This document shows, one piece after another, positions 6,256 through 8,958 of a DNA stretch of 64,000 nucleotides. Under the pieces are notes generated by a model. The model was not told the DNA's origin and made no database searches. It saw only the letters and a program-made list of their open reading frames with translations. Position 1 is the first letter of the stretch, and each line of letters opens with the position of its first letter. This stretch comes from Candidatus Bathyarchaeota archaeon (GTDB taxonomy: Archaea; Thermoproteota; Bathyarchaeia; JAPDIZ01): NCBI GenBank assembly GCA_029259355.1, contig JAPDIZ010000003.1, forward strand, positions 69,181 to 133,180, in the 5' to 3' direction. The position numbers and the translations under genes were made by a program.

Positions 6256-6987
6256 TTGAGGAATGGTCGGCTGAACATCGAGTTATCCGAAGAATCCATC
6301 CTCGCAAGGAGCTCGTCGCAGCAGGTTGTGTTGCTGATGCGTTGGGGGCTTGGATGGCTTAGGCGACGAAAATCCTCGACTCAGACGGCAGAGGTTTTGG
6401 AAGCTATAGACACTTTAGAGCGGGGAGGAGGATCGCCTAGCGTAAAAGCCATAAGCGCAGCAACCGGGTTGGGAAGCGACGAGGTTAGGAGAGTTCTAAG
6501 CGAAGCTGCTGACAAGGGGTTGGTATCGGTTGAGAGGGGAAGGCTTAGGCTCACGGACAAGGGAAGAGCTAGCGTGCTTGAGCACCGAACGAGGTATGTC
6601 CACGACCTCGTTTTAAGACCTCCCCCACCCCTCGCTACGCTCTCACGAGTTTGGGAGCGTGAGGTAAGCAGCTGGGGAGATCATTTGGTGAGAAACCACG
6701 GGATAGACCAGCAAGTAGTCCAGAGGCTTATGGAGTACAGAGGTAGAATAGAGCAGGTGGTTCCACTTACTTCGCTGGCGGAGGGGGAGAGGGGGGAAGT
6801 CGTCTTCGTATTGGGTGGGAGAGGAGCTGTTAGAAGGCTCTGGGATATGGGGCTCACCCCGGGAACCGAAGTCATCTTAGCTAGAAGAGCTCCCTTTATG
6901 GGGCCTGTCGAGGTTTTGGTTAGAGGAACGAGCTTAGCTCTTGGTAGAGGAATAGCTTCTCGAGTTTTTGTTAGAGTCAAGAGGTGA
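6256..6987 (+). CDS. winged-helix (DtxR-like) regulator with C-terminal FeoA (SH3-like) domain
   Basis: C-terminal LAEGERGEVVFVLGGRGAVRRLWDMGLTPGTEVILARRAPFMGPVEVLVRGTSLALGRGIASRVFV is FeoA-like; N-terminal HTH-like region; immediately upstream of feoB; true start uncertain. Confidence 0.65.
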   Translation: MRNGRLNIELSEESILARSSSQQVVLLMRWGLGWLRRRKSSTQTAEVLEAIDTLERGGGSPSVKAISAATGLGSDEVRRVLSEAADKGLVSVERGRLRLTDKGRASVLEHRTRYVHDLVLRPPPPLATLSRVWEREVSSWGDHLVRNHGIDQQVVQRLMEYRGRIEQVVPLTSLAEGERGEVVFVLGGRGAVRRLWDMGLTPGTEVILARRAPFMGPVEVLVRGTSLALGRGIASRVFVRVKR

Positions 6988-7107
6988 GCTCAAACGGGTA
7001 AGAGAATTAGCGTAGCGCTAGCTGGAAATGCTAATGTTGGGAAGAGCAGCCTCTTCAACCAGCTTACGGGGTCGAGCCAGCACATAGGTAACTGGCCGGG
7101 TAAGACT

Positions 7108-8958
7108 GTGGAAAAAGCTGAAGGCAAGCTGTACTACTCGGGATACGAGATATACGTGGTGGACCTGCCCGGTATCTACTCGCTGTCAGCTCTGTCGATT
7201 GAAGAGCTCATCGCTCGAGACTACATAGCCTCTGAAAAGCCCGACATAGTGATCGATGTCGTAGATGCCTCTGCTCTGGAGAGAAACCTGTACCTCACAG
7301 TGCAGCTGCTCGAACTCGAAGCCCCTCTACTGATAGCCCTCAACCAAGTAGACTTCGCCGCGAAGAGGGGGATTAGGATAGATGTCGAGGCTTTGGAAAG
7401 GGAGTTGGGGGTTAAGGTGGTTCCAACGATCGCAACCACTGGCTACGGGGTAGATGAACTCGTAAAAGCTGTAGTATCGTTCTACGAGGAGGGTAAGCCT
7501 AGCGGGAGAGCTCCAAGGTATGGGAGGGAAGTTGAGGAAGCGATAGAGGCTATCGAGAAGGAACTCTCCAACGTAACCCTTGGGGAGCTGGAGCGCTTTC
7601 CCAAAAGGTGGATTGCGATAAAGCTTCTCGAGAGAGATTCTGAGGTCTGGGAGCTGCTCTCCAAGCAGCCCAGCTGCGACGCTGTGTTTGAGGCTGTTGC
7701 GAAGTGGAGTCAAAAGATCGAGAGCATGCACGGCGAACGCGCTCCCGCCATAATCGCAGCCGAAAGATATGGGTTTATAACGCGAGTGGTTGAGCGCGTG
7801 CAGACGATAACCACACCCGCGAAGCCCTCGCTGAGCGAAGCCGTAGACGAGCTAACCACTCACCCAGTAGCGGGTTACCTGATCCTAGCTTGCGTAGTAG
7901 CTGGGATATTCGCTGCAGTCTTTGAAGGCGGATCAGCGCTCAGCGCTTTTCTTGAAAGCGTTCTATCTGGTTGGCTGCTTGCAGCGAGGCAGTGGCTCTT
8001 GAGCATCCTCCCAGCATGGGCTGTTGACGTCTTGATCGATGGGGTTCTGACGGGGTTTGTAGCGGGGCTTGTGCTCGTCATCCCATACGTCCTCCCCTTC
8101 TACGTCATACTCGCGCTGTTAGAGGACTCTGGGTACTTGCCTAGAGCCGCATTTCTCGTAGATAACCTCATGCACAAGATGGGGTTGCACGGAAAGGCCT
8201 TCATACCTCTCATGCTGGGCTTCGGCTGCAACGTCCCAGCTGTCATGGGCTGTCGAATAATGGAGACGGAGAGGGAGAGGTTCATCGCTGGCCTACTCGC
8301 TACTTTTGTGCCCTGCGCAGCTCGCACAGTCGTCATTCTCGGCGTTGTGGGAAGGTTTTTGGGCCTAGGGTGGGCGCTAGCCCTATACCTCATCGACATC
8401 TTGGTAGTGATCGCTGTGGGTAGGCTAGCTCACAGAGTTGCTCCAGGAGAGCCCATGGGCCTGATCATGGAGATGCCGCCTTACAGAAAGCCAAGCCCTT
8501 CGGTGGTGCTTAGACAGTCTTGGCTTAGGACAAAGGACTTTCTCTACATAGCTCTACCGATAATCGTGTTAGGGAGCAGCTTTTTGGAAGTGCTAAAGGT
8601 CGCGGGCGTCATCGACCAAGCCTCGCAAGCCTTTGCCCCAGCTATGAGCGCGATCCTCGGGCTACCCGGGTTTGCGGTGGTACCGCTGGTCTTTGGAGTG
8701 CTTAGGAAGGAGCTAGCTCTCGTAATGCTCGTTGAGGTAGCGGGCACGACCAACCTAAGCCTAGTGTTCACGCCTTCTCAGATGGTGGTTTTCTCACTTG
8801 TCACCATGCTCTACGTTCCCTGCATAGCTACGGTGGCAGCTCTGTTCAAGGAGTTTGGAGTTGGAAAAGCTGCGCTAATCACCGCAACAAACTTGCTGGT
8901 TGCAACCGCTTTGGGAGCGTCGTCTTTCAGGCTTATGGAGCTACTAGGCTTTTCCTAG
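7108..8958 (+). CDS. feoB: ferrous iron transport protein B (FeoB); real N-terminus lies upstream of the ORF-track start
   Basis: G3 (VVDLPG) and G4 (NQVD) GTPase motifs plus a polytopic membrane domain lie within the ORF; the G1 P-loop [16 protein letters not shown] is encoded in the same frame at about 7015-7062, upstream of the first GTG (7108). Confidence 0.85.
   Translation: MEKAEGKLYYSGYEIYVVDLPGIYSLSALSIEELIARDYIASEKPDIVIDVVDASALERNLYLTVQLLELEAPLLIALNQVDFAAKRGIRIDVEALERELGVKVVPTIATTGYGVDELVKAVVSFYEEGKPSGRAPRYGREVEEAIEAIEKELSNVTLGELERFPKRWIAIKLLERDSEVWELLSKQPSCDAVFEAVAKWSQKIESMHGERAPAIIAAERYGFITRVVERVQTITTPAKPSLSEAVDELTTHPVAGYLILACVVAGIFAAVFEGGSALSAFLESVLSGWLLAARQWLLSILPAWAVDVLIDGVLTGFVAGLVLVIPYVLPFYVILALLEDSGYLPRAAFLVDNLMHKMGLHGKAFIPLMLGFGCNVPAVMGCRIMETERERFIAGLLATFVPCAARTVVILGVVGRFLGLGWALALYLIDILVVIAVGRLAHRVAPGEPMGLIMEMPPYRKPSPSVVLRQSWLRTKDFLYIALPIIVLGSSFLEVLKVAGVIDQASQAFAPAMSAILGLPGFAVVPLVFGVLRKELALVMLVEVAGTTNLSLVFTPSQMVVFSLVTMLYVPCIATVAALFKEFGVGKAALITATNLLVATALGASSFRLMELLGFS

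Follow-up and report, generated by a model that had tools for sequence, protein, structure and literature searches.

Co-directed gene pairs most commonly overlap by 4 nucleotides (nt), an arrangement that couples them tightly (PMC6728339, PMC10666635), and termination-reinitiation requires an overlap or a very short distance between the genes (PMC10666635). Canonical archaeal feoAB operons have such an overlap, a GTGA in which the feoA stop and the feoB GTG start share letters, set within a GAGGTGA. Proof of programmed frameshifting in Archaea is limited to a single case, and selenocysteine and pyrrolysine are the only established examples of stop-codon recoding there. Here, we describe the feoA/feoB junction of a Candidatus Bathyarchaeota archaeon, located in a 64,000-nt stretch of DNA (hereafter, the window; GenBank assembly GCA_029259355.1, contig JAPDIZ010000003.1, positions 69,181 to 133,180, forward strand). 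The window has the same two genes, the same gene order and the same GAGGTGA as the canonical operons, and the exact canonical arrangement is present in its sister loci (L081 and L082), in an outgroup locus (L090) and in relatives of a second, parallel clade. Unlike in these operons, the overlapping GTG of the window no longer enters feoB, and no canonical in-frame start precedes the P-loop. The comparisons below indicate that a derived one-base insertion caused this displacement and that feoB is very likely still functional. Our tentative reading is that its translation may begin at an ACG codon.

The FeoB P-loop (7024–7047) shares its frame with an upstream open reading frame (ORF) encoding a winged helix-turn-helix (wHTH)–FeoA protein, from which it is separated by one TGA at 6985–6987. 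In the feoB frame, the earliest canonical start is GTG 7108, and there is no ATG, GTG or TTG at 6988–7107. This layout was described in the initial annotation, and both sequence and translation agree with it. By a rough estimate, 40 codons without any of these triplets would arise by chance with a probability of ~15%, which is not rare. The missing start is instead significant because of homology: 78 of the 79 orthologous loci (mostly from Bathyarchaeia, 49–55% amino acid identity) have a canonical start ahead of the P-loop, the exception being L036. The relevant features of the window are as follows.

6256 onward, + strand: longest feoA-like ORF, opening at TTG 6256 (ORF list).
6337–6987, + strand: feoA-like gene with winged-helix and FeoA domains; 216 amino acids from ATG 6337, stop TGA at 6985–6987.
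6981–6987, + strand: Shine-Dalgarno (SD)–like GAGGTGA, within which lie the TGA stop of feoA and the ancestral GTG start of feoB.
6984–7001, + strand: ancestral feoB GTG start (codon 6984–6986), in GTGA overlap with the feoA stop; now a five-codon ORF, GTG AGC TCA AAC GGG TAA.
6992–6994, + strand: A-run AAA with the derived 1-nt insertion; AA in sister and outgroup.
6994–6996, + strand: ACG, putative non-canonical initiation or re-initiation codon, 6 nt past GAGGTGA and with the P-loop Gly 10 codons on.
6997, + strand: derived A-to-G substitution, from alignments with sister and outgroup.
6996–7002, + strand: GGG_TAA_G, candidate +1 shift site in the GTG frame, proposed by analogy with CCC TGA sites.
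7006–7008, + strand: ATT, alternative near-cognate start, six codons ahead of the P-loop Gly.
7024–7047, + strand: G1 motif or P-loop, GNANVGKS, from translation and alignment to PDB 3k53 and 2wjg.
6994–8958, + strand: feoB coding body from ACG to TAG 8956–8958, intact, with FeoB_N, FeoB_Cyto, Gate, FeoB_C and Gate domains.
7108–7110, + strand: GTG taken as the start by gene callers (616-amino acid proteins P0123 and P0122), giving a product without G1 and G2.

Both genes are readily identified. The upstream ORF matches Pfam FeoA (PF04023; E = 6e-22, residues 169–240), giving it the C-terminal SH3-like domain of that family, and its N-terminal wHTH matches score under the curated Pfam cutoffs. 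In near-identical contigs, this feoA-like gene is called at 216 to 218 amino acids. Neither the window protein nor its closest homologues (200–220 amino acids) gave a match to the DtxR-type metal-binding and dimerisation domain, Fe_dep_repr_C; only more distant hits had it. The translation of 6988–8955 matches FeoB_N (E = 2e-64, residues 8–161), together with FeoB_Cyto, two Gate domains and FeoB_C, and its N-terminal region aligns with PDB 3k53 and 2wjg from residues 5–8 on, P-loop included. The segment at 7015–7062 that the initial annotation assigned to the FeoB G1 motif therefore does belong to FeoB. The ORF at 6988–8958 is uninterrupted and, in a protein search, 96% identical at the amino acid level to P0001, an intact FeoB of 657 amino acids. 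Thus, the G-domain motifs are present and the Cyto, Gate and FeoB_C domains lie in one ORF; what the gene lacks is a canonical start upstream of the P-loop. The shorter ORF at 7108–8958 opens just past the G2 threonine (PGKT|VEK). Its 616-amino acid product cannot be a working FeoB GTPase because it is without G1 and G2, as alignment to PDB 3k53 and 2wjg indicates, and we reject it as a functional FeoB. Judged from these alignments, the database protein that starts at GTG 7108 is a truncated misannotation.

The orthologous loci come from a scan of GTDB genomes in which the best 80 loci were kept; relatives there reach at most 56% amino acid identity, and the window's own species was not among them. 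Orthologue starts usually lie 9 to 16 codons ahead of the P-loop Gly, most commonly at −10 or −11, and a few orthologues have N-terminal extensions of 25 to 36 codons. In six loci (L016, L017, L034, L051, L076 and L078), a FeoB N-terminal extension is rich in Cys and His (MSCHSCPLNKK..., MASCHMPVKEK..., MDSCHSKLRKK...) and may be a small metal-binding tail before the G-domain. The exact junction pattern of the window had no match in a scan of JGI metagenomes. A scan for GGTGA followed by a P-loop after 30 to 42 nt gave ~55 FeoB loci among the matches listed, all of which have a canonical start except L128 (Ga0307380_10087911, minus strand, P-loop at reverse-complement position 3117). There, over the ~60 nt upstream, the FeoB frame (GNPNVGKTT...) lacks ATG, GTG and TTG from a TGA at −14 up to the P-loop; the candidate starts are CTG at −10 and −7 and ATT at −6. 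The L128 feoA stops at a TAA in another frame, and the locus is a single contig whose gene runs past the contig end.

The origin of the window layout can be read from its close relatives. The sister loci L081 and L082, which encode P0001, lie on contigs that are syntenic with the window and ~93% identical to it at the nucleotide level. These loci and the outgroup L090 (FeoA 69% and FeoB 78% identical to the window) read GAGGTGAGCTCAACGAGTAAG, with GTG AGC TCA ACG AGT AAG as the first feoB codons. In all three, the GTG overlapping the feoA TGA opens full-length feoB (657 amino acids in the sister). Aligned with the sister sequence, GAGGTGAGCTC-AACGAGTAAG, the window reads GAGGTGAGCTCAAACGGGTAAG, and differs by one additional A in 6992–6994 and by an A-to-G substitution at 6997. 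Because L090 has exactly the sister-type junction, the insertion and the substitution are both derived in the window lineage. As these alignments indicate, the 1-nt insertion (AA to AAA) displaced the feoB body from its ancestral GTG 6984. Through the substitution, the feoB frame reads GGT where it had AGT, and the GTG frame reads GGG where it had GAG; the change places a G after the ACG and creates GGG_TAA. That feoB now stands in frame with feoA behind TGA 6985 is a by-product, because the +1 shift occurred just after the GTGA overlap.

These comparisons also remove one of the explanations first offered for the locus, a recent nonsense mutation: the lesion is a 1-nt insertion, and TGA 6985, which the intact sister has as well, is simply the normal end of feoA. 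The initial annotation had overlooked GTG 6984–6986, the ancestral feoB start overlapping that TGA and now one base out of frame. Note that in the outgroup L090, feoA passes the TGA position and ends at a TAA (…GGT GAG CTC AAC GAG TAA), giving a 17-nt overlap with feoB. Furthermore, 18 nt, GTGAGCTCAACGAGTAAG, are identical in L090 and L081 despite a FeoB identity of 78%, which suggests nucleotide-level constraint on the initiation region.

The inserted base is shared by independent data. The junction is identical in four assemblies or sequencing runs: the window (on a source contig of 212,501 bp), L083 (ENA ERZ25515786; 6 mismatches relative to the window in 16.6 kb), L085 (ERZ25515408; 47 mismatches in 12.6 kb; encodes P0122) and L089, a Logan contig of SRR21024894. 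These are 99.6–99.96% identical to each other, and the intact alleles (P0001 and P0121) all fall within the sister clade. Because the four assemblies share the insertion and yet differ elsewhere by 1 to 47 single-nucleotide polymorphisms (SNPs), the insertion is not a sequencing error. A surplus A in the consensus, which the initial annotation had raised as a sequencing or assembly artefact, would find some encouragement in the low assembly coverage (~4.6× and 8× by contig names). It is almost certainly wrong, given the shared junction and the linked substitution at 6997. The contig names are also of short-read style (SPAdes NODE, Logan) and, if the data are indeed short reads, a 3-base run is not error-prone. 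As a separate observation, the Logan contigs of SRR21024894 break at 7100–7128, with L089 stopping at 7100 and L086 beginning at 7128. This break coincides with segregating sites at 7101 (T/C) and 7127 (A/G, Lys/Arg), which suggests that the sample holds two co-existing strains with the insertion in both.

The question is then how a FeoB with an intact P-loop could be made. The best reading, which we hold tentatively, is that FeoB is initiated or re-initiated at ACG 6994, with the position set by GAGGTGA. Ribosomes would load on, or terminate within, GAGGUGA (6981–6987), and ACG 6994 would then sit in the P site, 6 nt downstream of that motif. The predicted product has a normal FeoB N-terminus; its synthesis would be coupled to translation of feoA and probably reduced in amount. 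We infer the use of ACG, and a route by initiation and not by recoding, from the sequence features that follow.

Genes of the window have GGTGA-type SD motifs 4 to 6 nt ahead of their starts, for example, AGAGGTGAGCTGTC-TTG at 27233 on the minus strand. In that gene pair (27227–27250, minus strand), the junction reads AGAGGTGA GCTGTC TTG: the SD encloses the TGA stop of the upstream gene, and 6 nt on, in the same frame, the downstream gene starts at a canonical TTG. This is the feoA/feoB layout with TTG in place of ACG. In the aEF1A mRNA of Pyrococcus abyssi, GGAGGUGAU is likewise followed after 5 nt by AUG (PMC6237735). ACG 6994 has both the SD spacing and the orthologous position expected of a near-cognate start: a start at −10 agrees with the commonest orthologue starts (−10 and −11), and the solved Pyrococcus furiosus and Methanocaldococcus jannaschii NFeoB structures align from ~9 residues ahead of the Gly.

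A near-cognate start elsewhere in the frame, above all at ATT 7006, is quite unlikely. AUU is a proven start in Escherichia coli infC and pcnB (10.1101/063800), ATT 7006 lies 5 nt past the TAA of the mini-ORF, and a protein begun there would keep the beta-1 strand SVALAG. Yet this codon is 18 nt from the SD, in contrast to the 4- to 6-nt spacing seen in the window; it would give an N-terminus shorter than that of nearly all orthologues; and in the parallel clade described next, the position is occupied by CTC (L036) or ATC (L096). The initial annotation had proposed a non-canonical start, with ATT 7006 as the example. A non-canonical start has become the leading functional explanation, and ACG is preferred over ATT because it stands 6 nt after GAGGTGA, lies at −10 from the Gly and is shared with an independent case among Bathyarchaeia.

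That independent case comprises L036, the exception in the orthologue survey, and two further loci. In L036 (2985–3035), feoA ends ...CAG AGG TGA and is followed, in frame, by GAG ACA ACG GAA AAG, with no canonical start before the P-loop. L095 (1431–1480), from a separate assembly, has the same sequence as L036. L096 (1455–1505), a sister of L036 at 89% amino acid identity, reads AGG TGA AAG GCG ACG GAA AAG; there is no indel between the two, and its sole canonical start before the P-loop is a TTG at −2. Public gene calls shorten FeoB in this clade to 630 or 640 amino acids. Between the feoB genes of L036 and L096, synonymous divergence (dS) is 0.52, and the ratio of nonsynonymous to synonymous divergence (dN/dS) is 0.11. 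These values point to long-term purifying selection on a layout that the common ancestor already had. The nearest outgroups, L217 and L220 (77–78% amino acid identity), read CAGAGGTG ACC GAG AAG and have a GTG start with the GTGA overlap; thus, the L036-clade layout arose by a 7-nt insertion after GTG(A).

The GAGGTGA motif is kept in L081, L090, L036, L096, L217 and L220. The window clade and the L036 clade share the same derived pattern, GAGGTGA-N6-ACG-G, and in each the P-loop Gly comes exactly 10 codons after the ACG. Relatives of the L036 clade have ACC, ACA or ACT as the Thr codon, which became ACG in the clade itself; ACG makes up only 16–24% of Thr codons there. The near-cognate codon is conserved as ACG in the window clade, L036, L095 and L096, across the two independent lineages available. 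It is possible, and short of probable, that these two unrelated archaeal lineages independently converted a GTGA overlap to GAGGUGA-N6-ACG-G with both still expressing FeoB. As a side observation on operon content, relatives within Bathyarchaeia (L095:494–1440, L096:525–1470 and L217:1–604) encode a DtxR-like repressor (Fe_dep_repress plus FeoA), a small FeoA and FeoB. The window lineage differs in encoding just one wHTH-FeoA protein, which lacks the DtxR metal-binding domain.

The parallel clade also bears on two forms of recoding. In the first, some ribosomes would decode TGA 6985 as sense and produce a wHTH-FeoA-FeoB fusion. Only one TGA interrupts the frame shared by feoA and feoB in both independent lineages without a start (window clade; L036/L096), and a fusion is structurally feasible, as natural and functional FeoA-FeoB fusions occur in Bacteroides (PMC8980893). 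Nevertheless, we consider readthrough improbable. The in-frame state is automatic after a +1 or +7 insertion at a GTGA overlap. The proposal, one of those in the initial annotation, also finds no ancestral support: the genes of the sister and outgroup are out of frame and GTGA-overlapped, and no FeoA-FeoB fusion was found among 66 FeoA homologues (the closest of 200–220 amino acids) or among the loci with long FeoB N-termini. TGA is a normal stop in the window, where it terminates 5 of 19 genes; on the same count, a reassignment of TGA was ruled out. With G or A as the next base, the TGA does not stand in a context that promotes readthrough. RNA folding of 6960–7090 did not exceed that of shuffled sequence (z = 0.07), with no obvious recoding stimulator. 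Studies of stop-codon readthrough in Archaea have been extensive only for selenocysteine and pyrrolysine (PMC8211752), and a DNA-binding domain tethered to a membrane transporter would be odd.

In the second, translation would start at GTG 6984, coupled to feoA termination, and tRNA-Gly would slip by +1 from GGG to GGU with TAA in the A site. The GGG_TAA_G at 6996–7002 does combine a slippery P-site codon with an A-site stop; the GGG exists only through the derived 6997 substitution, and the earlier GAG would be unable to re-pair in the +1 frame. Shift-prone sites are known in which a homopolymeric codon precedes a stop (CCC TGA; also prfB, CUU UGA; PMC2790909), and Saccharolobus solfataricus fucA1 offers a precedent in which a strain-specific A-run frameshift is rescued by low-level recoding (PMC8211752). 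This route would retain an N-terminus of ancestral length. We nonetheless regard it as distinctly improbable. Cellular +1 programmed ribosomal frameshifting (PRF) is without any demonstrated case in Archaea. The SD-like element lies 8 nt from the P-site codon, versus ~3 nt in prfB. The shift site is confined to the shallow window clade and has no RNA structure nearby. In L036 and L096, the GTG frame has neither a stop nor a comparable site (only GGA AAA G), and frameshifting at such a site does not explain both cases. Transcriptional slippage was also ruled out on general grounds, a 3-nt A-run being too short for it.

No relaxation of constraint on the gene downstream of the insertion is detectable. 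Between window and sister, the feoB dN/dS is 0.05; when changes are polarised by L090, nonsynonymous and synonymous ones number 6 and 22 on the window branch and 10 and 35 on the sister branch, and the window branch is not accelerated. Within the insertion clade, feoB carries four synonymous and two nonsynonymous polymorphisms, compared with 29 and 13 in neighbouring genes. Against a neutral expectation of ~75% nonsynonymous changes, this gives a binomial P of ~0.04–0.06 (a hand calculation on six sites). The 17.9-kb alignment of window and sister contains 13 indels, of which 11 fall between genes and another, of 3 nt, keeps the frame. The remaining one, the sole frame-breaking coding indel, falls in feoB codons 3–4, upstream of everything conserved. 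Taken together, these sequence comparisons make it very likely that feoB remains functional, summed over all expression routes.

On the contrary view, a real and fixed insertion has ended FeoB production, and the ORF looks intact only because there has been too little time for decay. There is indeed a frame-disrupting lesion relative to intact orthologues, namely, the 1-nt insertion; frameshifts in metagenome-assembled genomes (MAGs) are usually inactivating, and no canonical start codon is on offer. The insertion clade is also very young (pairwise feoB dS of 0.002–0.008), and few secondary lesions would be expected in it; there are none. The polymorphism test draws on only six sites. Even so, a young pseudogene is unlikely. 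The lesion sits in the first 4 of 657 codons; the chance that a random inactivating hit falls in that 16-nt stretch is <1%, and the 17.9-kb alignment shows no other coding frameshift. The polymorphism ratio resembles that of constrained neighbours, the branch is not accelerated, and L036 and L096 have kept the same architecture under purifying selection.

Several points weigh against initiation at ACG 6994. Archaea are known to start at AUG, GUG and UUG only, and no natural ACG start has been documented among them (PMC7531240). In E. coli, ACG belongs to a codon group that initiates at 0.1–1% of the AUG level (10.1101/063800). The ACG was not new in the window lineage, as it pre-existed as Thr4 in the ancestor. 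Both cases are in frame with feoA across the TGA, which readthrough needs and ACG initiation does not. In L036, the old GTG keeps a good upstream SD (GGAGGT, 6 nt), and out-of-frame starts may therefore persist. The within-clade polymorphism sample is tiny, at six sites. Finally, these organisms are uncultured; ACG use in them is read from DNA, and expression is predicted only.

If the ACG reading is true, an ACG positioned by an SD that overlaps the upstream stop would be a natural archaeal start or re-initiation codon, and the first cellular archaeal start codon beyond AUG, GUG and UUG. Gene callers would then be truncating genes of this kind systematically. More generally, if feoB is still expressed by any route, archaeal ribosomes would start, or recode, at a site without AUG, GUG or UUG; if it is a young pseudogene, the locus would be a case of ordinary strain-level gene loss. 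Regardless, the public 616- and 630-amino acid "FeoB" proteins without a P-loop are annotation artefacts, and for iron-uptake inference in these MAGs, the genes should be treated neither as normal feoB nor automatically as dead.

Around the operon, the 385 nt upstream of feoA (5871–6255) are free of genes and presumably serve as the feo promoter or regulatory region; three 1-nt indels distinguish this stretch from that of the sister, and it has no tRNA or Rfam match. Scans of the whole window for tRNAs and Rfam families gave no matches. The remainder of the window (10000–64000) holds mostly nucleotide-sugar and glycosyltransferase genes (NTP transferases, PGM/PMM, GT2/GT4, NDP-sugar dehydrogenase and B12-radical SAM proteins), with neither rRNA nor tRNA, and looks like a large region for surface-glycan biosynthesis.

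Beyond the canonical feoAB operon, four known systems resemble this locus in part. In fucA1 of S. solfataricus, as here, close relatives carry either interrupted or full-length alleles, which differ by one base in an A-run. The interrupted fucA1 allele is still expressed at a low level, by −1 PRF (PMC8211752). That gene has an A-AAA-AAT heptamer, rare codons, a stem-loop and a −1 shift at a mid-gene position. The window, in contrast, has only AAA and no structure, would require a +1 shift and carries its lesion at codons 3–4. The bacterial non-canonical starts, AUU in infC and pcnB and ACG in E. coli, are similar in that Met-tRNAi can initiate at a near-cognate codon that follows a good SD, and ACG-initiated GFP has been confirmed by mass spectrometry in E. 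coli (10.1101/063800). Their efficiency in E. coli is 0.1–3% of that of AUG, and it is their archaeal counterpart that we infer here. Like the prfB-type +1 frameshift, the window presents a P-site codon, GGG, with a stop in the A site, where tRNA-Gly could re-pair on GGU. Unlike prfB, it has a different SD spacing and no autoregulatory logic, and its site is absent from the parallel case and confined to a shallow clade. Finally, in FeoAB of Bacteroides fragilis, FeoA is N-terminal to the FeoB G-domain, an order that a readthrough product of the window would match (PMC8980893). The B. fragilis protein, however, is encoded by a single ORF without a stop, whereas the window ORFs are split by a TGA and were ancestrally separate and out of frame.

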